Shown here: one piece after another, positions 22,493 through 61,969 of the stretch
Numbering within the stretch: the stretch's first letter is position 1
Layout of the letters: each line of letters starts with the position of its first letter
Made by a program: the position numbers and the translations under genes
The notes under the pieces: generated by a model
What the model saw: only the letters and a program-made list of their open reading frames with translations
The model's database searches: none
Told to the model about the DNA's origin: nothing
Assembly: GCA_036172245.1 (NCBI GenBank)
Contig: JAYWIR010000001.1
Location: 4,526,001 to 4,590,000, forward strand
DNA length: 64,000 nucleotides
Origin: Raillietiella orientalis
Lineage: Eukaryota
Reading direction: 5' to 3'

Positions 22493-24281
<1,789 letters not shown>

Positions 24282-35563: not shown

Positions 35564-38037
35564 ATGTCCGGAATGCCTGTTATAGTTCGTGTTGAAGCCC
35601 CTTTGGAACAACAGATCCAAGAGATTACATATGATGGACAAGAAATATACCAACCGTAAGTATACATACATATCGATAGCAGAAAGACGTACGCAAAGTA
35701 TTGTGTTCGTAGCATGTGCTTTGCTGAAATACGATATGTTCACAGTTGTTAAAAGGATGAGTTTCTAATTTGAGTCACTTATTTTGCAGTTGGTGAATGT
35801 TTTCTTATGGTTTAGGTTTTAAATTTCATGTTAAGCATATCAATTTAAAATCAATCCTTATGCACACGATCCATGCTTTTCAGAAGTGGGTGCACAAATT
35901 TGTTAAATAATTAATGAAAATTGAATATGATTGATAAATGAAAACTGATATATGAAAATTCTAGGCCCCTCTCTATGTCAGAAAATTTAACCAGATTAGC
36001 ACAAAAAATTGATTTTAATGAGACAGAGGATGAAGATACTAAGGCTAATGAAACTAACGAGCATAAAATAGAACCTTATCGATCTCAGCCAGTATGGAAG
36101 TGGGAATCTGTGAGAGGAAAATTAAGGTGCCTTAAATTGTTTTGCATTTGTCAAATGTCACATTGGATACACTGAATTTTTATGTGAATTTCTGAATCCT
36201 TATTTAATTTGCAGAAAGGCATTGACTGAAATTAGTGTGTTGATTGATGTACTGCAAATTTGCAAGCAAGGTCATTATATGGTTCTTGATCCCATAGTTC
36301 CCCAGGATGCAGTTGAAAATAAACCTTATGTGCAAATGATTGCCAAAAAAAAAGTGAGCACATGCAGCAATATTGTGTACACTGTATGTAAAGGCCCTTG
36401 CTTCAGCAGCTGCAATTTTGGCCAGTGGTGCAGAACAGTTAAAATCGTCTCAGATGGAAATGCTGAAGTCCAGACTGAGTCATGAGTTTCATGTTGAATT
36501 GTGGCTCCTTAGGCAGACTTGGAGATTGAAAAAAGTTGGCCATACCATTCTTGGTGATATGAGTTATCGTAGTGGTAAGATGTTTTTCAAGAAATATCCT
36601 CTGTTGTATTTTAAGCTTGCCTAAGTTTGTTCTGTATGAACATCCTATGTTTTTTTTTTTAGCGGGCTCTAGATTTTATCAGTCTGGAGTGTTTGAAGTT
36701 ACCAAAATGGAAGAGCCAGTAAGCAAATTGGAACCTTCAATGTCTCCTGCTTCACATGTATCTGCAAAATCTTCTTCCTCATTGAAAGTGACAGTGCCAA
36801 GTGAATTGGAAGGCATTAGCTATATCCAAGTCACGATTCAGAAAGATCAAGAAACACTATGCAATGCTAAACTTAGTGTACCTGATCCTAGCTTGGGGGT
36901 TGGGGAGCAAACATCAACATGGAAGGAGAAACTAGAGGCTGCTCAAAATGTCTTATTTTGTAAAGAATTATTTTTGCAGTTGGCAAGAGATGCAATGCAA
37001 CTTCAAGCCCCCATACCTCATATGGTAGTTGGCAATCAGATTACTGTGTCTTTGTTCCCTGGAATTCAACTTATTATTGGCCTATGTCACAGTGTAGCCT
37101 CTGAACGGCGGCCTCCTTCTCCCCCAGCAAAACTCGATCATAATCATGTCCTGGAACATTCTTTGCATCAGCTACTAAGAGAGATGCATACAAGCAATTT
37201 GAATCATCCAATGCCTACACCCAGCACTGCTATGATAGGTGTATCACGAAAGCGCCATCTAGCTGGTCCCGAAGCATCAAATCTGAGCAGCCTTCTAGGA
37301 TTAACACACAGTAATACCATACTGGAACAAATTATTCGACAGGCTCAGCATATTGTGCTTCGTCTGCGTACTATGTATGTAATTGACACTCAAGCCAAAG
37401 AAATCAGAGATCCACTCCTTGTATCCCATTGGAATACACTGAATTCTCCAACACAGAGTTGTGTGAAGATAAACATAACATCTTATGGTTATGAGACTCT
37501 TAACCGCACATCTCTTGTAGTTCATGTTGGAGAAACATCTTTGCAGGTTGTGTGTCGTGATGGACATGTGATGCATATGTCTTATGAACCACAAGAATTG
37601 AGGGACCTCATCTTGTGTCAAATCTCACATCATCAGATCTCGGCCATTCAATCATTAGCCAAATGCATGGGTTGGGTTGTTTTAGCTAGTTGTTTCAATT
37701 TAGGAGTAGGACCAGTGGAACCTTTAGGCAATTCTTCCAGTTGTTTGGTGATGTCTCCTTCAGGAAACAGGTAAGCATTTTGCAGTTCACGATGTTTTCT
37801 AACATGCTGATCTCCAGGATGATTGCTATTCGCTGTTGGCCACAAACCACACAGACTGGGATGCAAGTCATGTTTTGCTCTGCACCTAGAAGTGACTTTG
37901 TTCCTTCCAGCTTTGTCAAAGATCCCAAATGGGAAAATCTCGAGGGAGATTGGAAAATATTAAACTGGGAAAAGATGGAGGGTAGGAACTTCCTCAACAA
38001 AGTGGAAATGCTCATGGCATGCCTGACCAATTGCTGA
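35564..38037 (+). CDS. MED17: Mediator of RNA polymerase II transcription subunit 17
   Basis: Exons 35564-35655, 35965-36126, 36215-36353, 36394-36574, 36663-37770, 37818-38037. Motifs: [121 protein letters not shown]. Confidence 0.94.
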
Positions 38038-41000
38038 TCAAGTTACATTGGTAGATGGCCTTGGTGGCTGTTGATTTATGAATGTGTTCCACTTGTTAGG
38101 CATTTCAGACATTGCATATTTTCCTGCCACCAAGCTATAATCTTGATATGCCTGCATGATATGTTGTAATCGAGACAAGAGTAGATCATCCGGCACTGTC
38201 TCCTGAAATGTGCCTAGTAATTTTATAAGCTGTTTCTTGAATTTTTGACACTGAAAATAAAAATGTCTTGTTAGTGTTCCCCGTTTTTTTTCTTCCAGTA
38301 TTTACTTTAAAGTTTTCCTCTTCTTTTTGTTGCAGTTTCTCTCTGACACTCTTCAATTCTCCAGTAAGTACGTTGATGACTTTCTCGTGGACTAGGTCAT
38401 CCTTTTGATTTTCTAGGTATTTCTTTTCCATTTGTCCTTCTAATTTCGAAATCTTGATTGATTGTTTGATTTTTACCTTTTCAAGTCGTGAAACGTTCTC
38501 TTTTAGCTTATCACATAATCTTTGGAGTTCCAAGCATTTGGCCTGAAAGTGCGAATTATGAGAGGAAAGGGATCTTTTAACGTACATGTTCCATTGCAGC
38601 AGATTCCACGCAGTTTCGGAGTTGGGAAATTTCATCCTTCAACTGTACAGTTTGCAGATTGGCTTTCTGCAATCCTTTATTCAGACATTTTGATCTGCAG
38701 AAGATTATGGTGAGTTTTCGGCAAGATTCACGATGTGAAAACCATAAGATAATGGAAACCGAAAAAACACCAAAGACAAAACAGATAGCAGTCAAAATTC
38801 TCAGTCGAAATAGCATGCAAAAATGTGCTCATTTCTAGCCTCATGGAAAGCTTGCTTAGGTGTTTTAAAACTGTTCTGATCGATTTCTTCAACCCACCTA
38901 TCCGAATGTTTCGAATTGCAAACCACACATGAGGCAAATGTCGTTTTCTATCTGGGACGGATTTCGTGCCTGATAAGAAGGGCTAATATTCATTGAAGGT
39001 AGAGATTGCTTCGACATTTCAATGGAAAACTTTTAGGTTAAGTTTCCAACATCTCACTCCACTGATTGCATAATCGAAAAACCAAAAGCACACACTTGAA
39101 AACGAATGCAGTGAAAAAAGACCCATAACGACAGCAAAAGTTAACGCTAAGTGCCATCATCGATCCATTTCACTTAATAGAATTGGACTTCACATCAGGC
39201 ACAGCCGCGTCCCACTCAAAATTACTGCAAGTCTGCAACTCTCTGCTGATTATGGCTTGGCCCATGACCCTGACTGCCACAGGTCTTCCTCGGCTTCCTC
39301 TTCACCTCGAGTTGTTTTCTGGGTGAAATTGCCAACCATTTTCGGGTCCAGTTGCCCATCAATAGTCCCTCTCACAACGTGATCGGACTGCGTTGCTGTC
39401 AGTGTACACGTCAACTCAATTTTGAATTAAACTAGGTATAGGGAACTTTGAGCTATTTGAGAACGAACCAGCATTGGGCAAAGACACGTGTCGTCTCAAT
39501 CAGAACAAGCTGGTCTCCTCTATTAAAGTATGCAACGGAAATTCGGGAGCTTGTGGTCATGCGTGCTTAAACCTGAGATTGAAAAGGGAAAACTCAACTG
39601 ATGCATACAGCGCTGCTTAAGGCCGTAAGTGAAAAATCGCTGGTGACCTTTGACACCACACACACCGAAAACCTGTACAAAGAAAGAGAAAAAAGATACG
39701 GTGAAGGAGAAACACAAAAAGCATGATGGAAGTGTTCTTATCAAACTGAAATATCGCATCTTCTACTTTTGATGATCCACGACAAGAATAAGTACTGTGG
39801 TTAACGAAGATTGGGAAGAAGAAGAAGAAGAAAAGACACAAAAGTGAAGAAGCTCAAGTTAGTTTCACAGCTTTTCCATGTGCATTTTCCGTTCTTTAAT
39901 TAGCATGAGACTTCAAGGAGATATGCCGTGTATCTGCTACAATCCGAAAACAAAATCATCAGGAAGGAAATCTTTTCACCTAATTAAGTGCCCAAGACCG
40001 AGGGCAGAACGTGGATTAGGAATTAAGCCTATGCATTGCAGTTCAGAGGATTCTGTCCCCAAACTTTCCAGCATTTTATAATTAACAATCATACTAGCAA
40101 AGGTTTGCAAGAATGACAATCATCAGCTAGATAGTGAAGAACAATCTTTACTGAGGAATTTTAATTACCCTTAGGAATAATTGATTAGGGACTTTTTTTT
40201 AAAAAAAAAGGAAAAAAGAAAACGGTACCCCTGGAATAAACGAGGCCAAGAGTACCGACATTTCGAAACCTTTCGAAATCTCTCAACACGCTGCTCGCGA
40301 GCGAGCAGCGTGTTGAACACGGAAGCGTGTGATGCGGCCCTACGTACCCATTCAAGGTACTGCTGGTGCTTCAGTGTCAAGTGCTCGACTATTTTTCCCG
40401 ACTGTAAAACCGGGGGACATTGGAGCACTGCATCTGCACATCTTCGACGCTGTTTTTGTTCCTCCGACACGAGTCGCCCAGCTGCTCGAAGTCGACTTCA
40501 ATGTTAATTCTTCTTTCAAGTCGGCTTCATTTGCAGATCTTTAAGTAAATGCGTGCATATTTACCACGTGGGGTGGTAAATGGGAGGGAAGCGACCGCCT
40601 CCGGATCGGTGAAGGTTGTGTTCCACGAAGCGTTCGGAATCACCTCAGTTCCGTATCGTTCGTGAAAGGCCGTTTTTTCTCGGTCTCTCTTTTCTGCCAT
40701 CTCTTCTACCCAAACTATTTGGAAACCTTCGATAATCCCCAACATAAAGTTACTCTACGAGTCAAGCTCAGCTACCGACTGAAGACTTCATAGTTCTCTT
40801 GAACCAACAGGAATCTAATTGGAAAACAAAATGCTCCTTTGAAACGAATAATCACACATTCATGTACATGGTTGCAATTGCACGTATGGGTTTTGAAAAT
40901 TTACCATCTCGAAAAGAGTTTCCACGTGAATTTTCAGCTCCCATTCTAGTTAGCCGAATTGCTCATTTCCACTTGGTTGCCTGGTCAGGCTGGGGTCAAC

Positions 41001-41162: not shown

Positions 41163-41194
<32 letters not shown>

Positions 41195-43376
41195 TAATGT
41201 TTATATCTTCATAAATTTATGATATTGTCTACCTCTATGCTTCAATTATTTTTTCAAATGTGTTATTTTCAGTGAGTTTCTTACTGTGTTCCTCTGCACG
41301 CATGCAAGGTCACTCCTGTGTAGCCATTGTATATCTTATGCCCTTGGCAGGTATGTGATGCACCACGAGACCGGAAACACCGCCATTCAGAAGTTCTCAG
41401 AACTCTTGAAAGTGTAACAGGCAAACAGAATTGGAAAGTGCAGCAAATCCAACTTTACAAGTTAAGAAAGGGTTGGACGTGGAAGAACACACAACCCACG
41501 AAATGGGTCCATGTGGTAAGCGCCTGGATTTTGGGATTAATTGGTAATAAAGCAACTCGGTTGATCAAATCAACAAATCTTCGAGGTGGTCCATGTCATC
41601 GCCAAGGTGTTTCTTATCGGATAGGAATGCAGAATCACAAAGCAGCAACATCGTAGAAGACGCGAAACCTTTCTCGCGCAACATCTCGATTCCAGTGCAT
41701 CCGGTTGGCAAGGAAACGAAGAATAGAATGAGGCAAACCCAGGAAACTATCAGAGTGAATAGCTTGGTTCGCCTTTCTTATTTTGCTGTGAAATGAGCTA
41801 AAACTATTTCATGCTTCCTTACTTTAATCACCTTTCTAAAGCTTGGTCTTTTTCAAAAGTAATGACTTCTTTGTCTTTCAACGTTTGAGACAAGGCTGAG
41901 CATTTTTTTTTGAATACTTCTAACTGAGTTGATTTAAAATTGATAGAGTCTTGCAATATTTTAACTTTCGATTGTAACTTTCTTATTATTTCTTCCTTAA
42001 AAAAACAAAAAAAAGTTCAGTAGTCAATTTCGAAAACATAAGATTCACATATTTTCAAGAATTTTCCTGAAACCCTTTTACCAATGACTGTTTAGTGACA
42101 GCGTACATAGTACACGTTTTTGTGGTTTAAGCATGGAAATAAACATGGATGTACTGGAGCTCCTTTCAGACTCTGCGAGAGAAGTCTGGAAAGCAGGGTT
42201 CCTTTCCCCTCCCAGTGCCCTCGACGCAGGAAAATCCATTTTGGAGTTACGGACACGCTTTGGGGGATCGGTCATTCCTTCCATTAAGGTTATAGGTCGT
42301 CCCTAGCCGGTCAAAAAAGGACGGATTTGAATGGACGCGCTTTTCGTGTACCTCTGGCAGTGCTTTTTACGACTACGTGTTTGGAATGCTCTTCTGAAAC
42401 TGTAACTCGGTCGAGCCCACGATGCTTCTTAAGTATGCATACTTTCAACAAGAACGCATGTTTTCCACGTATGCTGCAGATTCAAGGATACATGGATGAG
42501 CTAGCAATCGGTGCAGTGCATAGAATGGAAAATTTCTTGGCTCTTTTCTAGAAGAGTATTTATCTTATTTTATTTTGTTTTATTTATTTTTTCGAGTTTT
42601 CTCAGACGAAGATGTGTGCTCCGTTCTCAAAAAACTACCCTTAATGGGTGAATGAGCCTCTGGTCGACCTTGCTTCCATGATTCACCTGGAGCGGACTCT
42701 AGAAAATGCAAATCGTCAACAGTGTGCAGAAAATGCTTGAACCCACGGTCACGACTCGGAAATCTGCACGGAAAGATTCGGAATTCGATCGGTTCACTCG
42801 ACTGACCACCTGCTTGCTTTTGTACACGAGAAGGACGCTGGATTCAAAACTCATCTGTGGGAAACGTACTCTATTTCTAAACGGAATCTCTCCGATTCTT
42901 ATCGGTTATCCGCCGAATTCCCCGGGAACGAAGTGATGCCCCAGCACTTTTATTGGGGTTTTTCTTTAAAAAAAAAATCTACTCTGGGAGGTCATTCGGT
43001 CCGCTACTGTCACACAGGAATTCAGTAATGCATTTCTTTTTAATTCAAGTATAATTTGTTGTTACCTTAGCATTTCTAACGTAGGGAAGAGGCGAAAAAA
43101 AAGGAATTTTCAGTTCCTCCCCCCCCCACCGACACACACTTACCTTGTGCTGCAGACTCCTTCTCTCTTTCTCGATGGATAAGCGGATTTTGATTTCAAG
43201 AGAATCCAACATCATCTCGAAGTTTTCATCAACATCGATAGGTCCGATGATTTTTTTCAGGTTGTCGATGAACTCCAGGAACTGAAACCAACAAAAACGG
43301 GGTTCTGATATCTGAGGGAAGCGTGCTGATGCCCTGAAGCGATCCAGGAGTGTTCGTGTTTTACCCCTCTGGCGCG

Positions 43377-43411
<35 letters not shown>

Positions 43412-46400
43412 CAAACGCGTATTACAGTGGAGTCGTTGCATCTCTTTTTCCATTCATCTCGAATACCATTTCTTTTACGAGTTGATCAGTCATTAAAAAC
43501 AACTGATGAGCTGTGGTGGGAGCGTCACACTTGCTAAGAGTTGCAGCAATTGAGAAGACCCGACCAAGTTGACTAATTGGTTCTTCATCTGAGAAAGCTG
43601 ACCACGGATCGTTCAGACCCGCTCAATCTTTTATATGAGAGCACACCGCGTGCACTTTGGGTGCTTGTCCCATCCACCCTACTCCCGCTGCCTGCGAGAT
43701 GCCGCGTGACCGATCAATGACCACTGGTCCAAGTGAAGCAGCTCTACGGAGCTTTTGGTGTTGAATTTGTTTCCTCAGGATGTTCCCCTCCCTCTGCCCT
43801 GCTTCGTAAACAGAGATGAGATTCGGTAGGTGCGAATTCTTCCCCGTTCCGCGACGGCGCCTACATCTCGTTCCCGCTGTCCCGAGGCGATCAGCCGGTT
43901 TCGAGGCTGTTTTCTGCTTAGCAGGAAGGCCGGTCCTCCTGGTTGCGTTGAGTGCTGCTGCTCCGTTTCTCGGAAAACCCTTCACCGATCTTGTTTCCAG
44001 GAGACCCTCCGAAGTCAGCTGCCTATCGCGGTCTCTATTCTGTTCTCTTCTAGTGCGTGCAATAAATGGTGTACGTGCGCGTGCGCGGGGAGTTTTCTAT
44101 TTCCACCAGTTTGTCCCGAGAGATTCCCTTTGAAAAGAAGGTCCGTCCTGAAGACTCTCGTTTCTCTCTTCCCATCTTCTTTCCTTTTAGCAAAGTCTCA
44201 GTTCTGTTCGTGATTCTTAAAGGCTGCTGCCTTCTAATAAAGAAAATCCTCCCTTTAAGGATTAAGGAAGGTGTCCTTTTCAGAAGCGCAGGCGTCAGGA
44301 TTGTTTCATTTTCCACCAGCAGATCAACAGCTTGAAGCTGAGGAGCCGCGTGAGAAGAAGAAGGGATTTTCCTGCTTTTCTTTTGACCTCTTCGCTTTCG
44401 TTTCCGATCCCCTAGAACCCCCATTCAAGAAGGGAATGCAGTCGCGGGACGGTGGACGGTTTCCTGCTACCTCTTCGGATTAAACACTCACAGAGGGGAC
44501 CCCCTCCCCAGAGATGGCTTTCGTTTCTCGTTGCTCGGCACGAGCTCGTGGCGCAAATCCTCCTCGTAGGATTCCAGAGAGTTCGGGAAACGAAGCGGGC
44601 GCCGTGTCTCCTTGAACCGAAGAGGGGGAAGACATCACAGCTGCATCTCAAGAAGGAAGAAGGAGGAAATACCTCGAAGCGGCATCAGCGGCACGTGGAG
44701 TAGAGGGAAAAATTCCAGCTGGATCCCTGAACTTGTTTTCCGGAGCGCGCGTTACGTAGGTTTCTTCTGATCGGCTACCAACATAAAAGGAGAGACTGCA
44801 CGGATTACTGCGCTGGCCACCACGTTTCGCCTCAATGAGTGGCAAACTCAAGGACGACCACCTCTGTAGGAAGAAGAGTAATCTGCCAGCTGTTCCCCTC
44901 CTCCCCTCTCCTCTCCGCACTCCACTTCTGACTGCAACTCATCCAGCTTGACAGCCCAGACACGAAAACATCACTGCGAGAAGGACAGGATCTCGTGCCC
45001 ACTTCCCGAATCTTGCGCGGATAGAGAACCCTCGGATGGTGGGTGGTTCTTCGAGTCGTTCCTGAGCCCGACGACCTTTCAAGCTCTCGAAGTTCCTTTG
45101 TTACCTGATGCTTCTTTGATTCACAAACAATCTCTCACATCTCTCTCTCTCTCTCCCTCACACACACATAGCATTGGGAAAGTTACATCATTGGCTAGGA
45201 AACGGTAGCAGCAAGGAGCTCGCTTCCCGGGGAGCGGTCGCAAAAGTGGGATAGTTCCCCAGACAACCTTTTTCCCACTAGCTTTCGCACTCCAGCAATA
45301 CGCAACAGCAACCTGACGATCCTTCCTTCAAATCTGAAGGCTCCACCTTTCACGCTCAAGAGCTGGGAAGCTCAGTGCAGCACTGCTTCATCGAGAAGCA
45401 TCCGCATCATAGGAAATCCGCAATCCTCCAGACGCTCTTCGCATGCCTGAGAACACCTGAGAGTCCTCAGATGGCATTTTCCTACACGTTATCTTTGACT
45501 AAGCTTCCTTAGCCTTGAGCGCAACGCCTACTGGCGGTGAGGATCGAATGAGCAGATGCTCGGTAGGGCAGCACGTTTTTTTGACGCACTCGATCATCGC
45601 ATGCGAGATTCCAACGCCATTACTGAAGAGTCGTGACACCGCCTGGTATCAGCCTGATCGAGGAAGCAACTCAAGGAGAATGATCTATAGAGGCCCATCA
45701 AACCGACGAATCCCGGAAGACGACTTGAAACCTCGTCCGGACCTGCTGCTCCGAAACGAAGGTCGAGTCATCGTCCTCGACGTCGCCCTCCCGTGTGAGA
45801 ACGCGGCAACAGCATGAGGAGAAGCACAGAACAGAAGAGAGGCCCACAACAGGAAGCTGTCTCCCTTGTTTCGCCGACAGAGGGACACCGGGCTTCTGTA
45901 AGAGCACTGGCGGGAGAGTCTGTGGAAGAGACGAAGGAACGGGTGCTTAGAAAACTCAAAATGCCCTGCAAAAAAAGGCAGAAGTATGAAGAAGAGGATC
46001 TTGGTTGCCCTAGCATCCGGGGTAGCCGAAACATTTACATGGACAAACATCGTGGGTCACCACAGGTCGGCACTTGAAGGCTCTATCAGCGAGCCTTATT
46101 AGGATATCGAAATGGGGCTTCTTTCCCCATTCCACATATCACCAACTATAAAACACAAACTAGCAAAAATGCTCTACTAGCAAACATACTCCACAATGAA
46201 TAAACATTTACAATCCAAAACAAATATGATACCCCATTCGAACCCACTCTGATACTACTAATCTGCTCCAACATACAACCATAATCCCAACCAATCCCGT
46301 TTTGTACATTAAAACCAAAACTTTCTACGATACCGCGAAACGTCATTTTCATTAAACTATTTTGTACAGCTATGCATAACACGGACACGTTTGCATGACC

Positions 46401-49400
46401 ACTTTCATACTCATAGCACATATAACAATAACATATGAACCCTTCGCCATCATCACTCTTCCACGAAAGCCATCAGTCCCAACATCCCTATAACCTCTCC
46501 CTACTAATGTAATCATTCCTAAAACTAACAGTATGTAAGCCACCATGCCACGTACTTAGCAATATCCCCAATTAACCCCAGTCTTAAGGGGAGACAACAT
46601 ATGGATGTTAGGGTGGAAACGAATTGACTGATTCTAGAATTTACCACGGTAGCAATTGTGACTTGAAAGATATTTGGGTGGATACACCGCGGTGTTCCGC
46701 TTTCCCTCCTGAGCCGAGCCGAGTGCACTGGGACACGCGACGTCCCAGATCCGGGCGCGAAGATGGGAGCCGACTTCCGGGAACCCCTCCCTCCACCGCG
46801 GGAAGAGGTCGTGGCATTTTCCTTTTCCCTCCTCCCAGCTCGCTCTCCTGCGTCGGCTCAGCGGTCCGCAATGGGCCGCCACCACTGCCGCCGCCTGGTC
46901 GTGCCGCCGGTGGCACGGCATCGCGCGAGGCTCTCGTCCTTTGAGGTGGCGACGCACCTCCTCCCTCCCACAGGGCTCATCCCCACTCCGAGATCATGCA
47001 GCGCGGAAGGACCCATCCACTCCCTTAAGGAAGGGAAGGCGCCGAGCTGCCCCTCCGTGGTGAGGCTGGAGACTGCGAACGGAATGGGAGCACTCCCTCG
47101 CGGTGGTACCACACGCCTGGCAGCCTCCCTCTCCTCCCGTCTCTCCACCGTGTACGGGACCTTCGCCTAGCCTCCCGGCCGTTCCTCGACCGAGCGGGAA
47201 CGTTGGTCCGCAGGTTCGAGGAGACGCCGCCGTTGGATGGAGGGGAGCGAGAGACGAGAGACGGGGAGCCGCCCTCCTCCTACGGCTCAGCTCACGACGA
47301 CGACGCTGGCACAGAAGCGCCTCGGCCACGCCCCGTGCACTCGGAGGAGCGAGGCATGGCTGAAAGGATAATGGGAATCCCTTTGGAGCTCTTCTGCTCT
47401 GCTCTCGCTGCTTTCCTCCCGGTTTCTTCTTCTTTTGGTTGGTGAGGTGCCGCCCTCCGCCCGCTTACGGGCTCTTTGACACCTCCCACGCCACCCGAAG
47501 AGGCGCGCAAGTCTTCTGGTTATGGAGGGTAACCCCGGAGGAATCATCCCTTCCTCAATCTCTCTGGAGGGACCCTCTGTGGGGGGTACCTCCATGGTTT
47601 CCAGAAAGAACCACCGGAAAAAGTCCACTCTTTTGTCCCTCCAGAACCCCGGAGGGACGCTTCCCGATTCCACTGTAGCGCTTCCCGAAGGAAGCAGCTC
47701 CATCCTGCAATACTCTGGAGTGGCAACCCTCCGAGGGGGTACCCACCAGCTCCGTGGAACGCGATAGAAGGTCCACCATGAGGGAAAGGGGAAACGTTTC
47801 CATGGTCACAAACCGAGGGGAACTTCCCCGAGGGGCTCCTTGGTTCTTTGAATGACCCCGTGGGATCAACTTCGCATTCCGGCCAGTCAACGCGGGCATC
47901 CAGTTCCACCAGTGCCGCCGCACCCTGAGCCTGTAGACCAGCTAGCGTCATCTTGCGAGGAGGACTCAAGAAACCCAGGACGCACCTTCGGCAGGTGGCC
48001 ACGTTGGTCAGGAACAACGCATGGAGTAGTGCCTGGTTGCAGGGAACCGTTCGCACGTGGGCGAGGATCCAGGAACCAAGCGCAGAACCGGTGCGACGTT
48101 TCTTATAAGGACTCAACAACAACTGCACTCTCTGGGAGATCCTGGAAAATCCTGTGAAGAGCGCGTCGACAAGCAGAGCCTCCCTGGACGCCGCGCTGCC
48201 CTCCCTTAGAGAACACATGGACGAAAGCAGCCTTACGGCTAAATGGAAGGTCTCCGTGGAGATCTCCGGCAGGAGGAGACGACTGGGAGAGTGGACGACG
48301 GGCCAGCTCACCAGCGCTGCGATCCCCATTGCTCGACCCCGTGGACTTTTGCACCGGGGCGTGCAACTGGGTATTCCGGAGGAGGAACTGCAGTGGCCCC
48401 CGTCTCTCGGCCCCATGAACACCCGCACTCTCCCCTTGAAGTGGCAGCAGTCGGCACTGATGCTGCTGCAACTTGGGGGCTCCCGTGCAACGCCCGCCGG
48501 CATCATTGAACACGGGGGAAGGGGGTGGACCCGAACTGTGCAAGATGCAGGGAGCGGGAATCCTTCCTGCACCTCCTAATGGACCACAGTCCATTAGGAG
48601 GTGCCCTCCGGTTTCTTTAGGGACGCTTTGCTGAGACCCTCGAAGCCCCCGGAGGCAACCCCAGAGACGTCTGAAAGCGCCTCTTCCGTCTGAAGACGCC
48701 CTCACGCCGGCTGCATCCCTCCCTAGCAGCAGTTTGCCTCCCGGGCGGCGGGGTCGTGGCCGCAGGGAACAATTCCAGAGGAGGCCACAATGACAGGGAC
48801 GCCATCTCTTTTGCTGTCCTCTTCATGAGGACAGCGTCAAGATGGCCCCGTCTGGGAGTCTTGAAACAGGAACTTGCCGGCATCCTTACAAGAATGCAGA
48901 GGAGACCATCCAGCACACAGTGATCCCTTCCCGAATCCCCCCATTTTTGGACTGTATGTTTTTTGTTTTATTCTTCTTCTTTTTGTTTGTATCCCCTTCC
49001 CCTGTGCTGCCGTAGCGAACCCTGCTGGTCTGATTGGCAGTTCCCCGCAGGTTCCCTCTCGTAGTTACAAGTGACGTAACAGGATCAAACGTCCTGCCAT
49101 AGACATATGTGTTTATTTTCTATAAATAAACTCCCCGGCCTGACCGGGTGTCAACCAGTGCCACACCCGCAGCCCACGACGCCTCCCCCTATTTCTCGGC
49201 GTCGATCTTTCCCCGGGCGGTACTCGAACCCGTAACTCTCGGTTCCACCTGCGCGGAGACCGCAACCACGCGCCTCGCGTTGGCAGCCTGCGTGGCTGCA
49301 GTCACTTCCCAGGACTCACAGGGAGCACCACGGAGCTATCCAGGTCATCCAGACACCTCTGTCCCTCGAAAGTGCTTTGCCGTGTTCCCTCCTCGTCTCT

Positions 49401-52400
49401 GCACCCTCCCCCGCATTCACCGTCCCGGAATAACTCGCCGAGGAGCAGACAGCAGTGGTCGACGGTTGTTGTACCTGCTTGTCGTCAAAGATGGCGCTGT
49501 TTGTTTTACTGTCAGCATCACATTCACGGGGGTGGCTTCACATCTCCTCTCCTCCACCCCTCACACTCCGAATATCCGCCATCGCTCCGGCATGGCAGGA
49601 CGAACACGCGCAGTATTCGGTATCTCTCCCACCCGTGATCCCACTCTCCTGTTCCCCTCCCACGGGACTCGTCCTTCCCCACGACTGCGTCACAACAGTT
49701 TGAAGCCCTCTATTCTCTTGCTGATTCCTCATAACCGGCTCATTCCTCTTACCTCTCAAACCCGCGCGCTCATCTCTTCCCATGCAATGATCACCCCATG
49801 GGGGCGATTACCCAGCCCTCACTCAGATCCAGCTGCATCCAAGGTGCTCTGCGGAAGGAGCGCTGCTGTTACGCGCCGCCTTGGCGCTGCTCCGCGAGCG
49901 GGAGCACCTCCAACGCGCCGAGCTGCACGATAGAAGGAAACACGAGGGACCGCAGAGGAGTCCAGAGGCGAAAGGGTAGACGACGAACGACGCAGGAACG
50001 AGGGTGCGGCCAGCAGAAGAAAGGGAAGAGGGGGGGGGAGAAACGAAAGGTTCTTCAGTTAGGAGATCCCTGTCGTCTCCGTCCCTAGCCGGTTCGGCCG
50101 TTTGCAGCCGCCTCTTTGCGCTGTTGTCCGCGCGAAACGGCGGCTGCGATCGGATGGCTCCTCCTGCCATCTCAAGGTCTTCCGTTCAACTGCAGGAGGA
50201 ACAGCCGCTTCCGACGATTTCCAGCTCCGTTGAAGCATCCATCACGCAATCGTGTGTTTGAGCCAGCTAAGATGAGATCAAAGGAGATGGTAAACGTTGC
50301 CGTGCGACCGCATCTGGCAACATCCACATTTGTTTCCGTCACGCCATCTTGTGACGGAAGAAATCCGTCGTGAGAGGTCACAAAGGACGCTTTTTCTTTG
50401 TTGTTTTTTTCCCTTCAGTAAGGGGAGAAGTGAAAGGGGAAAGTTTTCTGGATTACCCGCTAACCCATAGAAACCGATGGTGACCTCTTCCTGATCAGAG
50501 TTCCGAGGAGAAAAGCTCCACGGACGGTGGGTTCGAATTCTCTTCGTGTTCTTTTCGTTCAGAAGGTGCTTTCCTTGGTCGCGTGCCCATGACCTTAACG
50601 AAAGGTGCCTATCTTGTGGAGGACCCTGGATTCGCCGTTGGATGGACGCGTAGAAAAGAGGGTGAGGGCGCGACTGCGGAAGTGTTTCCAGGAGTGGGGG
50701 GTTGTGAGGTTTTGGTGAGGCGCCGGTAGGAGAGAGAGATCGGAGGGCGAGAGCTGCTTGCTCGATAAATCTTCCTGATTTGCGGGTGGGGCGGAATGCA
50801 CAGCAGGGACAGTGGAAGCACTCCTGAGAGATGAGGTAGGCTGTAGGCTGCTGGGTTTTCATTTTTTTTTTGATTCGCTGAATAGCTCAAGAGCCGTCGC
50901 GCGCCTGGCGGCTCACTGAGCTCTTTGACGCTGTTCGACACCACCCGAGAGTGCTTGTGATTCTTCAAGATAGAGGGTATCTCGGGAGGGGACCGCCCTA
51001 CGAATCCAAGAAGGGCTCCGGAGAAGAGAGTCCGTTCCTCTCACTCCTGGGGAGGAATACCCAGAGGGAAACCTCCACACTGGTTGTCTCCAAAGGAACC
51101 CTGAAGGGAATCTCCTTCCTTGTTCTCTCCGGAGGAACCCCCGAAGTGGTCCACTCCATTTTTTCTTCTCCGAAGGGAACCCAGAAATGATCCGCTATTA
51201 GGACTTTCTTCTCTTGAGGAGGGACCTTTCGCAAGGGGTTCTCTCCTGGTTTCCTCCCCTGAAGAGAACCTCGAAGGCACGCTTCCGAAATTTCTTTGAA
51301 GGGCGCTCCCCGAAAGGAACGACTCGCTTCTCTGCACTCTCTGGAGAGGTATCACACCAGCTCCATGTACGAGACAGAAGGTCCCCCTTGAAAGGGGAGA
51401 TCCGCTCCTGTGCATAACCGGAGAGGAACCCCCACTCCTTGATTCTGTTTCCTTGGAGGACCCGGAGGTCGACCCCCAATGCCCCGGACCTCATCGGGAG
51501 CACCAGTTTTAACCGCTACCAGTGCTGCACCCAAATGTATAGAGGCCACTCAGCGTCATCTTGCAGGAGGAATTCGAAACCACAACGCACCCTCCATTTC
51601 CCGGCGTCGATTCTTGCCGAGTATTCGAACCTGCGACGCTTAGTGTCACGCGCGGAGACCGCAACCACTTGGCCTCCGACTCAGTCTGCTGGACGGGATC
51701 GGCAAGGGTGGGGCTCCCGCTGCGACGGCAATGGGGATTAAAGCCCGGGGAGAGCTTTGCGTTTCCGGGAAGAGATGGAAGAACGAGCGATCGCCGTGCA
51801 ATGCAGGAACTCGGTTGACTGGATGTTTCGATGTGGCGCTTGCTCTCGAACAGGAACCGGATTGGCGGTTTCTTCAAAGAGGAATCCAAAGAGACGTGCG
51901 CAGCATCGGCACAACCTTGAACCAAATCTCTAGTTCGAACTCAGCTGAGACTCTCAGCGTGTCGGGCAAGAGGTCGCAAGGTGGGCAAACCCTGACGCCA
52001 ATCCCAGAACCAGAACGAAACGCGCGGAGGTCAGGAGGCGACCCGCAAGCTCTGACCGTGTTCTTCCCGACTGCCTCGCGCGGTGCTGAGCGACGGGGGA
52101 AGAGCTGGGACGAGCGAGAAGAGAGACACACACGCGGCGAATTCTGGTCGGACTGTCCGCATCCAATCCCCGGAGGTGCAGCTCGTACCTTGCCGTGGTC
52201 GGCGGCCAGCCTCTCCATCGATTTCCTTCGCGAGGCCATCTCCGCCTGGTTCATCTTGACCGTCTCCCTCAGACGCTCGTTGTCCTCCTTAAGCTGGCAG
52301 TTCAGCATCTTCAGCTCGTTCTGTTCCGAGTCCGCGATCTTCGCCTCCAGGCTCAGTGAGTGGCACTTCTGGACCATGTTGTCGTGCTTCTGCAAGAGGA

Positions 52401-55007
52401 GGGACGGAGGGTGACGGAGGAGCGAGAGCCCTCCCGGCAACGCGACCTCCTCGGACTCTGCTCGTCATAGGAGCAGCATCGCTTAACAGGGCAGGGAGGA
52501 GGACGGAAGGGAAGAGGTGGAAGGGAGAAGACCAAGGAGAAAGAGACAAACATCCTCGGCTTTCGGAAACTCTGCGTTTCTGTCTGCAGACGGGACCCAG
52601 GACTCACTGAGATCATCTCCCAGAGGAATCCCGGCGGCCTGCACGCACGCTGGGAAAGAAGTGGTCGCTCCCTGCTAAGGGAGATAATCTGCTAAGGGAC
52701 AGAGCGACCGCTGCTGGCATTTTCTTTTCTTTTCTTAAGTCTATAGAGTGCACGAACTCTGACGAATGCAGAAGCGCTGAGGAAGTGTTAACCATGGAGA
52801 AGGTGACAACAAGAAGGTTCAGGGGCGTGTGATAGCACTGAAGAACATGCTGGAGCACTGAGTGAAGAGAAGGAAGGAGAGCTCTGCTCTTGCCTCATGC
52901 TCAGTGGTTCTCCCTTCCCCCGGGATCTGCAACTTCGCACGTCTTCCCGAGCCAGAAACTCGGGAGGAGGAGGAGGAGGGCGAAGCTTCCTTGAGCCTTC
53001 CGTTGCATCCTGCAGCGAAGGAAAAGCCTTGCCTGCCACTGATCCGCACCGGGACCGTCAAGAGAGCAGCAGAGGAAGAGGCGATCAAGAGGGGAAGCGC
53101 TTCCCGTGGCAACAGGGAAACCGCAGCGCCAACCCGGTGCTCGTGAGAGGAGAGCGAATGGGATCGAGGGCATGAGGAAAGCGACCGATACGCTGACCCT
53201 TTCTATTCCTCGTAAGGGACGCTTGGAACACGCCACCGTGCCTCACCGAGGAAGATGGATGAAGCTGGCGGTGCGGACTGGTGACGAGAGAGGGTGTCTC
53301 TCTTAGTGGTAGCAACGGCAATTAATCCCGCTTTCTGTGAGCAGGAAGAGAGGTGGCAGCAGGGAAAGATCCAGACGTGAGAGCAAGGTGGACAGAGTGG
53401 AGCGGGGCTGGTGGCGGCAGACTCAGCGCGCTGAGCTGACCTCCGGAAAGCAGGAAAGGGAGGGAGAGGTGGGAGATGGGAAGGAAGGAAGGCTGGGATG
53501 AATGGGGCGAAGCGTTTTTCTTTGCCCTGAGAGCCGGAACGCGTCGCGAAGCGATGCGACCGCACGCTCCCGGAACGCGGCGGACGTCCTCCGGGGGAGA
53601 AAGGAGAAGGGGGTTACCATAGCGATCTCCTCCACGGAGACGAGCAGACGCCGCACGGACTGCTTGATGCTGAGCTCGTCTGTCCCGGCCGCCAGCAGGC
53701 GGGCGAGCGTCTGCTTGAAGTCCTCGAACCGAGTCGCCAGCCTCCGGTAGGCGGCAGCAGCAGCGGCATCCTGCCTCGGCGCATCCTCTGCAGAAGAGAA
53801 GGCGTCTCAGAAGTCACGCGCTGAGCGCATGAAGGCGCGCGCGTGGTCACAGCGGAGCAAGGTCGAACCGTGCGATCGTGCTTGGGTGGTCCTCCCCTCC
53901 CAAGAAACAACCGCGACACTCACGATCCTCCCCTGCCTATGGTCGGGAAGCACTCTCCCCTAGGAGAAGGAGAAGGAGGAGTGGGGAGACAGCAGCTCGT
54001 TCCCACCTTCCTTCCGCTCCCTGTCTCACCCCTTCTTCATCCCATTCCTGCTCCCTCCCTGATCCCCCAGGGACGCCAACAGACGGACAGACCTCCCGCA
54101 ACCCCGGGCGCTCCCCTTCCAGACTTCGCCCGGCCGCTGAGCACTTCTCTCCGCGCGTGTCACGGGGTGCTCGCTGGCCGGATCCAAGGCTCCGCTGCTC
54201 CTTTGACGCACCTCCCCGCGACCCTTCCAAGGAACGGGGACGCCCTATGGGGCTCGCGCGAGTGGAGACCTCCCCTGCCTTTCTCAGAGGCTCCTGCAGG
54301 CGCCGAGGCGCTCCCTTTCTCTGAAAGGTGACTGAAAAGGGATGGGGCAAGGGACCTTCCTGGAGACGAGGAAAACTCGGGAACGAGGGGGGAGAAATGC
54401 AGGAGGCGGGAATCGCGTGCGGTCCGTCGCTTCCTGAGGAGGGGCGGGAGCGACGCCACCTGCAGGGAAAAGCGCGTGGGCTGCTGCGCAACCTGCTTTC
54501 CCCTCTTCCCTTCCCCTCCTTGCCCTCCCTTCCCCTCTTTCGGACGCACAGAGAGAGGGAAAAGCGCCCTCCCGGGAACGGGAGACACCGCCCACTGACG
54601 GACGAAAGCGCGGAGAAAGCTTTCGTTTCTGCGACGCGATGACAGCACCGCCGTGTAGCCGCCACGCGCGCCGTCAATTGGTGTGCAGAAGGTACGAAGG
54701 TGCTCCCGAGGAAGTGACCGTCGTCGCCCGAGACGCTGAGAAGAGAGGAAAGGAAGGGGAGGGGAGGGGACAGAGGGTGGAAAGCTCCCGCAACCTCCAC
54801 CACCTCCTGTCTCCCTCCTCTCTCTCCTCTGCCACCACCTCTGCCTCCCTCGCGTCCAGGAATTGACGCCGCAAGGGGGGCGCTGGAAGCTGCGAGGCCT
54901 ACCTCTCCAGGGATGCATCGTCCCGGAGCCTCGGCTTCCTACTTCTACCCTGGCCGGAGTCGTCCAGCAGCTTGCGGTTCCTCCGCTCGAGGTCACGCAC
55001 GTGGTGT
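38038..55007 (-). CDS. CCDC170: CCDC170-like coiled-coil protein; 5' exons uncertain
   Basis: Phase-consistent exons 55007-54949, 53787-53618, 52389-52189, 43281-43144, 41995-41832, 38694-38586, 38542-38306, 38250-38038 (TGA). The protein reads FEDFKQTLARLL...DHGKFLEFIDNL...FEMMLDSL...IRKLQSKVK...EKDQAL...AKCLELQRLCDKLKENVSRLEKVKIKQSIKI...VINVLTGELKSVREKL...FKKQLIKLLG...VPDDLLLSRLQHIM. This is colinear with the recalled CCDC170 C-terminal half (YLKFLDQL...FDMRLD...KTLEQ...LEKMKEK...IEVVTSEMK...FREVVSQMLG...LPDYEII). The 55007-54949 exon is the least certain. Confidence 0.8.
38256..38261 (+). promoter_or_regulatory. Putative poly(A) signal of MED17
   Basis: First AATAAA downstream of the MED17 stop, followed by GT/T-rich sequence (tgtcttgttagtgtt, gtttttttttc). 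Confidence 0.55.
40283..40316. repeat. Perfect 16-bp inverted repeat with 2-nt spacer
   Basis: TCAACACGCTGCTCGC-GA-GCGAGCAGCGTGTTGA. Confidence 0.95.
41164..41190. repeat. (TA)n microsatellite
   Basis: Visible in the sequence. Confidence 0.9.
43372..43411. repeat. (GC)n(CA)n alternating purine-pyrimidine tract
   Basis: Visible in the sequence. Confidence 0.9.
43900..46200 (+). mobile_element. Decayed non-LTR retrotransposon of the restriction-like-endonuclease type (R2/NeSL/Utopia-like): RT and RLE remnants; boundaries approximate
   Basis: Frameshifted remnants in the expected order. EEPREKKKGFSCFSFDLFAFVSDP (44271-44483) resembles RT ARxxKKxLxxxxLDLxNAFGSVP, and RGDPL near 44493 resembles QGDPLSP. 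RRIPEDDLKPRPDLLLRNEGRVIVLDVALPCEN (45515-45817) is the RLE R/KPD...D motif. SIRGSRNIYM near 46030 resembles the C-terminal SRxIY. An A-rich tail follows. Confidence 0.75.
46950..49800 (+). mobile_element. Decayed APE-type LINE remnants (ORF1/gag-like and endonuclease-like); boundaries approximate
   Basis: A broken zinc knuckle (FHQCRR...LASSC, near 47905-47960) and ORF1-like RGLLHRGVQLGIPEEEL (48154-48579). APE-like ADSSGRRLLYLL...TFTG occurs in ORF 49148-49933. There is nucleotide similarity to 51050-51680. Confidence 0.45.
50480..50960 (-). mobile_element. Decayed Ty3/Gypsy integrase C-terminal (GPY/F) region
   Basis: Across frames: LGWCRTASK, LRSLSPTGAS, SFLRV, RRIQGPPQD, APFVKV, KH. These follow the Gypsy pattern LGxRTAxK...LRPxPxS...HVFLRxDxxRxxLQPPYxGPFKV...KH. 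Confidence 0.5.
51000..51900 (+). mobile_element. Second decayed LINE ORF1-like copy with zinc-knuckle remnant
   Basis: RYQCCTQMYRGHSASSC resembles QCxxCxxxGHxAxxC. It shares AGCGTCATCTTGC (51552, 47944) and CGCGGAGACCGCAACCAC (51651, 49252) with the upstream copy. Confidence 0.5.
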
Positions 55008-55479
55008 CTGGGGAAGAGAAGAGCTCGAAGCCTCGAACTGTGACCACCGTTCGTCCCCCAGGACTCCGCAAGGAAGGCGCGCCGACCCTCGGCCGGAAGC
55101 CCTCCCTTCCTCCCCTCCCCTCTCTCCCTCTCCAATTTACCGGTGCCTCTCAGGAGAGTGGCAGCTGCAAACGACTTCCTTCGGGCTCTTTCTTCCTACT
55201 CCCTCGGGAAGGCGGCGCTCCGACTGCACGGGGGGATGCGAAGGCTGTGCGGCGGCGGGCAGGAGTGCCAGCGGCAGAAGGGCAGCGCACGTCATCGATC
55301 CTTCGGAGTGTCTCCGGAGGCGACGCGGGGAGGAGCGTCGCCTGCGCGCGCGCCAGGCCAGCGACGGGCGTCCTGGACGGATCTGCGGGCAGCGCCTGCG
55401 CTGGGCACGAGCCCCGGATTGGTGTTTTTGGTGCTTCCCCTCGGGCGACAAGGTCCCCTAGCTGTCGAGCCCGTTCGCG

Positions 55480-55912
55480 TTCAGACGGAGCCGCCGTCCG
55501 CAGGGATGCTACTCTCTTCCGGCGAGGCCGCTGCCTCTCCCAGAGGGGCAGCTGTACTCTTGAGGCCACACCTCCCCGTGGGGAGGGCCGGTGGTCCGGC
55601 ATCTTTCCCCACCTGCGGGTCTCCGGACCGCTCCGTTCGCCGAGATCTCTCCAGAAAGACAGCCTGCTCCAGCCGACGCCGAGACCGGGGGTTCCCTCCT
55701 TCCACAGAGCCATCAGCGGTACTCTCGTTTGTCGGGCGGTGAGCGGTGCCATCTGAGCGGAATCTGGTTACCATGGATTCTGCCGTCGGATCCAGACTGG
55801 AACCCATCCCGAGTTCTATTGATTTATTTATCTATTCTATCTATTTATCTATTCTATTTCTTTATTCTATCTATTAATCTATTTGTTTTTTCTACATATT
55901 TATATCCGGAAC
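55480..55912 (+). mobile_element. 3' end of a decayed LINE with simple-repeat tail
   Basis: LLRPHL...SFPTCGSPDRSVRR...RR...PSAVLSF* resembles the terminal CCHC region of LINE ORF2. It is followed by a TATTC/TATC-rich tail at 55816-55912 within otherwise GC-rich DNA. Confidence 0.4.
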
Positions 55913-56523
55913 TTTCGATGTTGCTTGGCACCTGCGAAAGTTAGGTGAGTCGGTCGGACCGGAGCTTTAACTCGAGGGCTCCGGGCAGTTGGATGGGTTT
56001 CCTCCGACACTCCATCGGCACCAACAGCCGCAAACAGCACCCGCTTCACGAAGCGGAAGGGGACTGATGTTGTGCCAGCTGAAGGGATCCGAGGCAGAGC
56101 TCGAGCACCGCAAAAGGGAGATCGCACCCCACTGGACCGGAAAGGGCAAGGGCGGACGGTCCAAGTCTTGCCTGCCTGTCAGGGAATTCCACTCGCCCCC
56201 TCGCCTTTTTGGGAGAGGCGACGCCGCAGATGCTGTTACCCCGCAGCTCAGTGAGGGGACCACGATCCGTTGCGTGCCTGGAAATGCTTTTGCTTCCTAC
56301 TCGGAAGCGGGAGCCACGCACACATCCCATCCACCAATCCCCCTCTGACTCCTCGCGGAGCGCGGCCGTCTCTCCGATTTCCGGCTCCCACGTCCTGGAT
56401 ACGCCCGGCGCTTTGCAAGCGAATCAAGCGCTTGCTCCGTGGGCCTCTCCCTACGATATCCACTCTTGGACCTTGTTTACGCCCCATCCCTTCCATCCGG
56501 CAAATCTCTTCTCCTCTTCCTCT

Positions 56524-56587
56524 TATATATATATATATATTTCTCCTACATATATATATATACACACACACACACATACATACATAC
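56524..56587. repeat. (TA)n/(CA)n microsatellite cluster
   Basis: Visible in the sequence. Confidence 0.85.
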
Positions 56588-58527
56588 TTATGGAGAAGAA
56601 ATTTTGGAGAAAAAATTTTTTCGTGTTTTTCTCCTAGAGAAAGCAACAACGAACGCCTTCAAAAGGCAGGGATGGGGGGGCTGATACCGGGCTGCGATAC
56701 GGCGAAATCATAAGAGAGGAGGAAGAAGGGAAGACGTGCCTTTTGCGTGTATCATGTGGCATGCCACGTGGAAATCACGTTTTACACTCAGTGTGAGCGT
56801 GGCGCTCTTGCCCTTCGTCGGTACTGTGCAGGTGCTCACTGTGCAGTTCTGAGCCCCAACTTTCCCTCTTCCCTTACCCCCCCCTTCTTCTCTCGATCCT
56901 CCTCGATCCTTTTCGCACCATCGTGCGCAAAGGATCGCACTACCTCGGCAGGAATCGTTCACGCGGGAGAGGAGCAGCGACGGCAGGGGAGAGATCGAAC
57001 GGAACGTCGTCGTCGTCAGAATTTCCAAGGCAACGCTGGGACGCCGGCAACAATGGCTGTTCGTGCAACAATCGTTGCCAGGGGAGAGCGTCGTTTGTTA
57101 GCCGCGAACGACTCTCTCCTCTGACTCACCTGGCGGCGCTCAGCCGATGCTGGTGTTTCGTTCCCCCATTCCGACGCTTCCCTGCAGCACGCGTGCGGAG
57201 TGTTGCGGGAGAGGCGTCTTCCCGCCCAGCCTTTCTCGCGTCAGAGCAGGTCGCTAAGCTCCGGAAACAGCTTGACCCCGGCGGGGGAGGAGGCGGCACG
57301 AACGCTGTTGTAGGGACTGGGAGCTGCCCCCAGCGCAGCTGGGAGAGTTCCCTGGGCCACGATCCAGTAGAGTCTTCTCCCGCGGTTCGAAGTCTTCCGA
57401 GCCATATTCGCTTCATGCTGCTCGGTGTTGCGGCTGGAAGATCCCTTCCCCTTCCTTCTCAAACCCACACAAAATCAAAGAAAAAAAGGCTGAAGGAAAA
57501 CAGCGCGGAGGAGCACGTTCACGCATTCCGCCTCTCTGCTGGAAGTGCAACGCGAGGGGCACTTGCCCGGGCTGCCGCTGGCAGAGTGGGCGCGGCAGCA
57601 TCGAGCCGCTTCGGGAGCGGACGACGACTTTGGTCGCTCCCTGGTCGACTCGCCCGCGGGGCAAGAAATCCCGAGGGTAGAAGGGACGCGGGCACCGGTC
57701 GTACGGGAACGGCCAAGCGCGCGGCTTCTTGGCCCCGCCGTTTCGCCGCCGCGGTCCCCGCCGATTCCTCCCCCTTCCGCTCCGCTCCAGACCCGCGCTC
57801 GGCAAGCCCTTCACGCGCGATCTTATTTTCCGGATGTATTCCGGGATAGTCTGCAGTGCTCCCTTCTTCCAGGGACGCGGAACAGGGTCCTCGTGGCAGA
57901 ACGCCTGCTTGAGGTTCCTCCCTTCGCCTCAGGAAGCCGTCGCAGCGGGGGCAGGAGAATCTTCAAGGGACCCGATGGAGTTGGTGGACCCCCTCCCCCA
58001 TTTCCCTCGCCTTCTCCGGACTCCATAAAACCGCCCGCGCTCTCGCGGCGAGGGGAACCGGCTCGCATGCACCCCGGGGTGCGGGTCGGCATCTCCGTGC
58101 CCGCACCCAAAGTCGGGTTCTCCGGGTCGGCGCTTCTTGCACGGAGAAAGCGAGGCGCAAGTGGCGGGGCAGCAGCAGCAGCTCCGAGCCGGGAGGGCCC
58201 GGCGCGCCGCTGCGCGCCGCCCGCAGCCGCACCGCAGTGTCTCGAAGGAAGTTGCCGGTGGCGGCAGCAGCGTGCGGCAGACACTATCCCTTCAAGGCCG
58301 GGCCCTTCCTGCGCCACCAGAGGGCAGCACCGCCAACGGCCGCCCTTTGTCGGTCGCTCATCTGGACAGCTGGGGACGATGACGCTTCATAGAGAGAGGT
58401 ACGAAGGGTGCAGTCGCGCGGAGAAGGAAGGGCGAGCGAGGAGGCACTCCACCGTTCCAGGCGCCCTGAGGCAGGCGGCGAGGAGGCCAGGGAGACGACG
58501 ACGCACCTCCCCCCCCATCCCATCCCG

Positions 58528-61500: not shown

Positions 61501-61969
61501 CTGGCTCATGTGGCAGGCAAAAGTGCGTGATCCGGGGTTCCGTGTGCCTTACTCCCCTGCTTCTCTCCTCTTCTTCCTTTTGTCCGGCCTTGCCGACTGG
61601 CCCCGCTTTTTCTAGGGTTACCTGGGCTTCGAGAAGCACGTGAACAGGCTGATGGACATCGTCGAGGAGTTCGTGGACCACGTGCGCGCCACCCCTGGGT
61701 TCCGCCTCGTGATAGACCCACCTCCGGGGATCAATGTGTGCTTCTGGTACCTTCCTCCGCGCCTCAAAAACCCGGAAGAGTGCCTGCATTGCGTGGCTCC
61801 CATCATCAAGAAGAGGATGGTTTTGTGTGGATCCATGATGATCTCCTACCAGCCGCTGAGGTCCCTGCCGAACTTCTTCCGGTTCACCGCTCAGAACTCT
61901 TCCCTCACGTCTTCCGAGCTGCAGTTCTTCGTGCAAGAGATCGCTCGCCTGGGCGAAGACATCGAATAA
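58528..61969 (+). CDS. PLP-dependent acidic amino-acid decarboxylase (aspartate 1-decarboxylase/black, CSAD/GADL1-like); start codon uncertain
   Basis: Exons 58528-58853, 60320-60548, 60777-60996, 61087-61234, 61294-61522, 61616-61969. Motifs: YSVRTGHPFFINQLFSSVDPFGLLGQWVTDALNCSVYTYEVAPVFTLME, PGGSISN, FTSEDAHYS, GTTVLGAFDP, WLHVDAA, NAHK (PLP lysine), YLFQED, YDCGDK, QCGRR, NVCFWY, VAPIIK, MISYQP, NFFR. An alternative ATG is at 58591. Confidence 0.92.
60604..60730. repeat. Short dispersed repeat ACACCGACACC (three copies) in decarboxylase intron 2
   Basis: Copies near 60607, 60692 and 60718. Confidence 0.7.

Follow-up and report, generated by a model that had tools for sequence, protein, structure and literature searches.

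Clusters of overlapping genes in human, mouse and fly consist mostly of antiparallel, convergent, partial overlaps, according to the available part of the survey by Solda et al. (2008; PMC2330155). The same part of that survey reports that such overlapping pairs are poorly conserved, that they are numerous in the fly owing to gene density and long untranslated regions (UTRs), and that overlaps between coding sequence (CDS) and UTR are counted as a class, with UTR/UTR overlaps being preferentially retained. For Drosophila, the accessible text of Wen et al. (2014; PMC4079977) gives convergent units with overlapping 3'UTRs, found at 371 loci, as the dominant class of natural antisense transcripts in cis (cis-NATs) that yield small interfering RNAs (siRNAs). 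The 3' overlaps yield AGO2-loaded siRNAs according to this text, and at every expression level the overlapping pairs that make no siRNAs equal or outnumber those that do (PMC4079977). Convergent transcription was also named as a source of Dicer-2 substrates in the part available of a further report (PMC7144943). Here we describe a stretch of 64,000 nucleotides (nt) from Raillietiella orientalis (GenBank assembly GCA_036172245.1, contig JAYWIR010000001.1, positions 4,526,001 to 4,590,000), hereafter called the window, in which the gene for MED17 on the plus strand and a predicted coiled-coil gene on the minus strand meet at their stop codons. At this locus two nuclear protein-coding genes of an arthropod-like genome probably form an ordinary convergent, tail-to-tail pair, and the arrangement belongs to a common, well-described class with nothing new in kind. 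A preliminary description of the window had called the arrangement unusual for an animal nuclear locus, which is at odds with the dominance of convergent 3' overlaps in the portions of the literature considered here (PMC2330155; PMC4079977).

The meeting point of the two genes was read directly from the sequence:

38035-38040, both strands: TGATCA, the two abutting stop codons.

The stop codon of MED17 and that of the minus-strand gene abut with a gap of zero. In the list of open reading frames (ORFs), the plus frame 37690-38037 closes with the TGA at 38035-38037, and the minus frame 38038-38301, which measures 87 codons from stop to stop, closes with the TGA at 38040-38038. To the base, this is the contact that had been noted before. 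The palindrome carries no significance of its own, because TGA stops that touch from opposite strands can only spell TGATCA, and the hexamer is not enriched in the 64 kb (19 occurrences vs approximately 18 estimated from base composition). We regard the touching stops as real on the side of MED17 and as probable on the side of the minus gene. The zero gap itself most likely came about incidentally; rather than a device, it would be one point on a continuous range of short distances between stops.

On the plus strand, the following features were located:

35570-38037, plus strand: MED17 gene with six coding segments, placed by tblastn of the Strigamia homologue P0001.
35570-35650, 35963-36097, 36207-36377, 36433-36588, 36653-37770 and 37818-38037, plus strand: approximate MED17 coding segments.
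37818-38037, plus strand: last coding exon of MED17 with TGA at 38035-38037, from the sequence and the alignment of the C-terminus.

The large MED17 exon (36650-37774, 374 amino acids) matched 506 proteins at E<=1e-3, and the named ones among them were mostly MED17 proteins, which carry the Pfam family PF10156. Its best match was a protein of Strigamia maritima (E 2.5e-162, 68% identity), followed by MED17 of insects, Daphnia, tick and spider with 55-63% identity. These matches mark the organism as arthropod-like, and its own protein is absent from them. Queried alone, the single-exon ORF reached 18.8 bits (E 7.4e-4) against Pfam Med17 (PF10156), just under the cut-off of 21 bits. Homology to MED17 extends over the full length of the plus gene, as residues 2-620 of Strigamia P0001 fall colinearly on the six segments within 35570-38034. 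The last intron (37771-37817, 47 nt, phase 2, ACAG/gtaagc ... ctccag/G) leads into an exon with a native C-terminus before the stop at 38035-38037: the alignment places it against the last residues of seven MED17 proteins from arthropods, and in two of these C is likewise the final residue in that column. Judged by these homologies, the plus gene is a true MED17 orthologue and its stop is authentic. Homologue matches, colinear tblastn and C-terminus alignment thus agree with the earlier assignment of the plus gene as MED17 ending at 38037. With a span of only about 2.5 kb, MED17 is a compact gene, and the multi-kb introns ascribed to the locus in the preliminary description are found in the minus gene (3.1 and 1.1 kb), but not in MED17. 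Opposite the last MED17 exon, a minus-strand frame of 115 codons (37695-38042) begins just inside TGATCA; this ORF most likely arose by chance in antisense to coding sequence.

On the minus strand, five exons (43281-43144, 41995-41832, 38694-38586, 38542-38306 and 38250-38038) were chained, with the following predicted features of the gene:

43144-43281, minus strand: predicted exon of 46 codons, from sequence and exon chain.
41832-41995, minus strand: predicted coiled-coil exon of 164 nt, from sequence and exon chain.
38586-38694, minus strand: predicted exon of 109 nt, entered in phase 2, from sequence and exon chain.
38543-38585, minus strand: predicted intron of 43 nt, from the exon chain.
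38306-38542, minus strand: predicted coiled-coil exon of 79 codons, from ORF list and exon chain.
38251-38305, minus strand: predicted last intron of 55 nt (gtaaat...ttttcag), from sequence and exon chain.
38038-38250, minus strand: predicted terminal coding exon, with 70 codons and the stop TGA at 38040-38038, from its open frame, its acceptor and phase 0.

The modelled part of the gene comprises 286 codons in at least five exons from 43281 to 38038, and a candidate start ATG followed by a gtattc donor lies further upstream at 43493-43491. AG acceptors behind pyrimidine-rich tracts precede all exons, the donors read gtaagt, gtgatt, gtacgt and gtaaat, the phases agree at each junction, and the exons, joined by a script, make 861 nt with one stop, which is terminal. 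The introns measure 1.1 kb, 3.1 kb, 43 nt and 55 nt, and the two short ones fall in the size class of the 47-nt intron of MED17. At the last junction, the upstream exon ends with AACTTTAAA/gtaaat at 38306, the terminal exon is preceded by the acceptor tttttattttcag/TGT, and both ends are in phase 0. The chain with its matched phases therefore identifies 38306/38250 as the natural last junction, a canonical 55-nt intron in phase with four upstream coiled-coil exons, as had been proposed. The last exon had been given as 71 codons, open throughout; it is indeed open, and its 213 nt correspond to 70 codons and the TGA. Residues E, K, Q, L and R make up 53% of the first 216 residues of the predicted protein, a coiled-coil-like composition, and 37% of the last 70. 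The predicted introns of this gene also hold two microsatellites, (AT)16 at 41164-41196 and (CA)13 at 43385-43411. By self-comparison, no repeat copy of 37900-38700 was found in the window.

The two 3' ends face each other on opposite strands, that of MED17 being verified and that of the minus gene predicted from the five phase-matched exons. Two features outline where the transcripts may end:

38256-38291, plus strand: likely poly(A) region of MED17, from hexamer scan and sequence, its use being presumed.
36203-36208, minus strand: first ATTAAA past the minus stop, at a distance of 1830 nt and on the edge of the third MED17 coding segment.

Within 1.3 kb past the MED17 stop, the sole AATAAA or ATTAAA is the AATAAA at 38256-38261, 219 nt downstream of the stop and situated in the pyrimidine tract of the predicted 55-nt minus intron. 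It is followed by the GT-rich TGTCTTGTTAGTGTT at 38264-38278 and a run of eight T at 38284-38291, thereby forming a textbook signal plus downstream element. An ATTAAA at 37959-37964 was rejected as MED17 signal, because it lies upstream of the stop and cleavage 10-30 nt downstream of it removes the stop codon. Neither gene offers a poly(A) signal that it could use upstream of its own stop. From its stop at 38037, the compact and conserved MED17 gene would most likely be transcribed about 240 nt further to the AATAAA/GT-rich site at 38256-38291. Since the first AATAAA lies inside the minus intron, the MED17 3'UTR, most likely 38038 to about 38280, would be antisense to the whole predicted terminal exon of the coiled-coil gene and its last acceptor. 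The mRNA of the coiled-coil gene, whose predicted coding end is 38038, would in turn run in antisense into the last MED17 exon, because no common signal hexamer is found for 1358 nt past its stop. The sequence, the two open frames, the authentic MED17 stop and the places of the signal hexamers are shown; transcription of the minus exons, their splicing in the modelled way, the ends of the two transcripts and whatever follows from the overlap are inferred. Taken together, the lack of any gap between the stops and the location of the poly(A) hexamers imply that each 3'UTR would overlap the last coding exon of the other gene. As previously claimed, the mutual 3' antisense overlap thus follows from the poly(A) positions once both stops are granted, a deduction that is sound given the gene model. 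A minus-strand AATAAA was additionally observed at 38681-38676 inside the predicted exon 38694-38586, where it overlaps a TAA in another frame (ATC AAA ATG TCT GAA TAA); it is conceivable that the minus gene has an alternative, short 3' end at this position.

The neighbourhood of MED17 was compared among 76 metagenome loci with MED17 relatives, 27 of which hold the C-terminus and the stop. Nine minus-strand ORFs from eight of these 27 loci were picked for Pfam searches, and in at least four of the 27 a Pfam-verified gene converges on MED17 with 91-239 nt between the stops:

L009: Maf-like gene converging on MED17, 91 nt between stops.
L026, 2954-3778, minus strand: ODAD1-like coiled coil (ODAD1_CC, E 6e-15), 127 nt between stops.
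L005: CDK2AP gene converging on MED17, 208 nt between stops.
L008: FUT8 gene converging on MED17, 239 nt between stops.

For the remaining five of the nine ORFs no Pfam family was found, and several short minus ORFs whose gaps to MED17 stops lie between -10 and 24 nt are outside the nine queried. Among the metagenome loci, the MED17 relative at L026 is the closest (best segment 70%, stop at L026:2821-2823); comparison of its ODAD1-like neighbour with the window gave nothing below E 0.98. The cDNA-like L001 carries a poly(A) run 81 nt past the MED17 stop, with a signal hexamer at +48, which shows that the MED17 3'UTR is short in one relative. A tight convergent neighbour is common at MED17. The pairing is not conserved, because the partner differs at each other locus examined.

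A rival reading is that the terminal exon of the minus gene has been misread. The gene could end differently, by retention of the 55-nt intron, by use of another terminal exon or by a donor inside 38250-38038, or the chain of ORFs could be decayed or non-genic, so that only the MED17 stop would be real and the touching stops would be a coincidence of an open frame. We consider this rather unlikely, and several observations nevertheless weigh in its favour or against the ordinary pair. Openness alone is weak coding evidence, because 341 of 4683 AG sites in positions 1-42000 of the window (7.3%) precede at least 70 open codons. The exon chain was built by hand, seeking compatible phases, and its phase consistency is therefore partly selected. 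None of 12 common signal hexamers occurs on the minus strand for 1358 nt past the minus stop, which is odd for a normal terminal exon and counts mildly against the model. When codon usage was scored as log-odds, with MED17 as training set and the introns of the minus gene as background, three of the four upstream exons did not stand out from intronic windows, and a score trained on the upstream minus exons only is non-discriminating, as 26% of null windows attain the value of the terminal exon. In homologue searches, which used single exons rather than the spliced protein as queries, the terminal exon had no accepted homologue among 1.84 billion representatives in a full HMMER scan, and for the 79-codon exon a word-seeded search yielded 244 candidates and no match. 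The sole HMMER match of the terminal exon (E 1.5e-4), a bacterial-type protein of 778 amino acids, was rejected as spurious because it is a tandem-repeat protein matched in six stretches. The arrangement was also sought in relatives, as the preliminary description had suggested, and other families were found to converge on MED17 there: a verified zero gap occurs in none of the 27 other MED17 loci, and a tblastn search with the spliced minus protein detected a relative in none of the 76. Two weak matches in this search (E around 0.01) were rejected, as they lie antisense inside MED17 coding sequence; one of them, in L013, contains stop codons.

The sequence of the terminal exon and its context argue in the opposite direction. 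Four consecutive junctions are canonical and phase-matched, with short introns of typical length, and the composition of the upstream part is strongly that of a coiled coil. With the MED17-trained score, the terminal exon reached +8.0 in the proposed frame, the highest value of the five minus exons, and none of 337 stop-free intronic windows of 70 codons matched it (null mean -7.7, standard deviation 6.0), with the limitation that these windows overlap and are thus not independent. Each of the other five frames of 38041-38250 contains 4-6 stops, and their scores are below or close to zero. Even if the 55-nt intron were retained, the minus frame would stop at 38188-38186, so that the stops would still be only 148 nt apart, and the AATAAA at 38256 would keep the MED17 3'UTR over the coding end of the minus gene.

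The identity of the coiled-coil gene was addressed with the same single-exon queries. The terminal exon gave 11 candidates and no match in a word-seeded search of 5.8 billion proteins and only unnamed clusters in the Atlas. The ten best Atlas families of the 79-codon exon were unrelated coiled-coil families (HOOK, GOLGA2, CAST, CCDC171, filament and others) and did not include CCDC170; one of the ten best matches shares a family with the top match, and the top family is flagged as probably wrong. In Pfam, none of the five minus exons, each queried singly, showed a family above the cut-off. Human CCDC170 is a long coiled-coil protein of about 700 amino acids. The minus gene had previously been labelled CCDC170, but similarity to CCDC170 was found in none of the single-exon searches (word-seeded, HMMER, Atlas or Pfam). 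As no search supports this name, it should give way to 'coiled-coil gene of unknown family'. We propose that the predicted minus gene is a fast-evolving or lineage-restricted coiled-coil gene.

A different question is whether the overlap, if real, was selected as a regulatory device. Antisense transcription of the coiled-coil gene, perhaps restricted to certain tissues, would then lower MED17 output, or the reverse, either through polymerase collision or through endogenous siRNAs (endo-siRNAs) derived from double-stranded RNA. The geometry would force a complementarity of at least about 240 nt between the MED17 3'UTR and the terminal exon, which could grow to 1.4-1.8 kb if the minus transcript extended to the first signal-like hexamers, and for Drosophila the accessible parts of two reports associate 3' overlaps with AGO2-loaded siRNAs (PMC4079977, PMC7144943). 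On the other hand, siRNA-less overlapping pairs are as many or more at every expression level in the available text of one of these reports (PMC4079977), and the partner of MED17 differs at every other locus examined, so that the pairing is not conserved. A selected device therefore appears very improbable to us, and interference, RNA editing and siRNAs, as raised in the preliminary description, would be no more than possible consequences of the overlap. We give equally little credence to the proposal that the terminal exon is a recently born orphan exon recruited from the MED17 3'UTR, or that the locus is a switch throttling MED17 by collision or endo-siRNAs. In such a case, the orphan minus mRNA, lacking a common hexamer for 1.4-1.8 kb, might be antisense to nearly all of the MED17 CDS, an outcome that seems hardly probable.

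As an ordinary convergent pair, the locus resembles the Drosophila 3'-cis-NATs in the described part of PMC4079977, such as AGO2/CG7739 and r2d2/cdc14, in that protein-coding genes on opposite strands have facing 3' ends and, here by prediction, share transcript sequence, and MED17 is here an arthropod-type compact gene with short introns. It differs from them by an overlap of the CDS/UTR rather than the UTR/UTR type, which is deduced from sequence alone, and by one partner being a prediction without homologues. With the metazoan overlap clusters, as far as they are covered by the available part of PMC2330155, it would have in common a partial antiparallel convergent overlap and a poorly conserved pairing, as seen across the MED17 loci; the zero-nt gap between the stops is not discussed in that part of the survey. 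At L009, L026, L005 and L008 a gene likewise converges on the MED17 stop, and the neighbour at L026 is also a coiled coil, but these neighbours belong to other families and none of them has a zero gap.

Elsewhere in the window, the following genes were recognised:

1959-3613, plus strand: exons of an OCRL-like inositol 5-phosphatase (Pfam Exo_endo_phos2 8e-13; OCRL-like ASH 6.5e-40).
23168-23812, plus strand: FAM76 (Pfam 4.9e-45).
58393-61969, plus strand: pyridoxal-dependent decarboxylase with GC-rich codons (Pfam 8e-30), in the GC-rich part.

In 2-kb bins, the GC content is 31-47% up to 42 kb and 52-68% from 44 kb, a sharp compositional shift. In the GC-rich part (44000-64000), many reading frames of either strand are open over long distances. 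One open minus-strand frame there, of 196 codons at 51874-52464, has a coiled-coil-like stretch and a weak match to Sas-6_C_CC (E 0.0049) below the cut-off; it may be part of the minus gene described above or of another one.

The locus raises no new question: its class has been catalogued well, and this pairing is not conserved. Should the minus gene be real, both gene models would be correct although they touch, and annotation pipelines that forbid overlaps would truncate one of the 3'UTRs. The locus would then also be a clean natural case in which CDS and 3'UTR overlap in antisense at the gene for an essential transcription factor subunit, and it could be used to ask about siRNAs or interference arising from such overlaps outside Drosophila.

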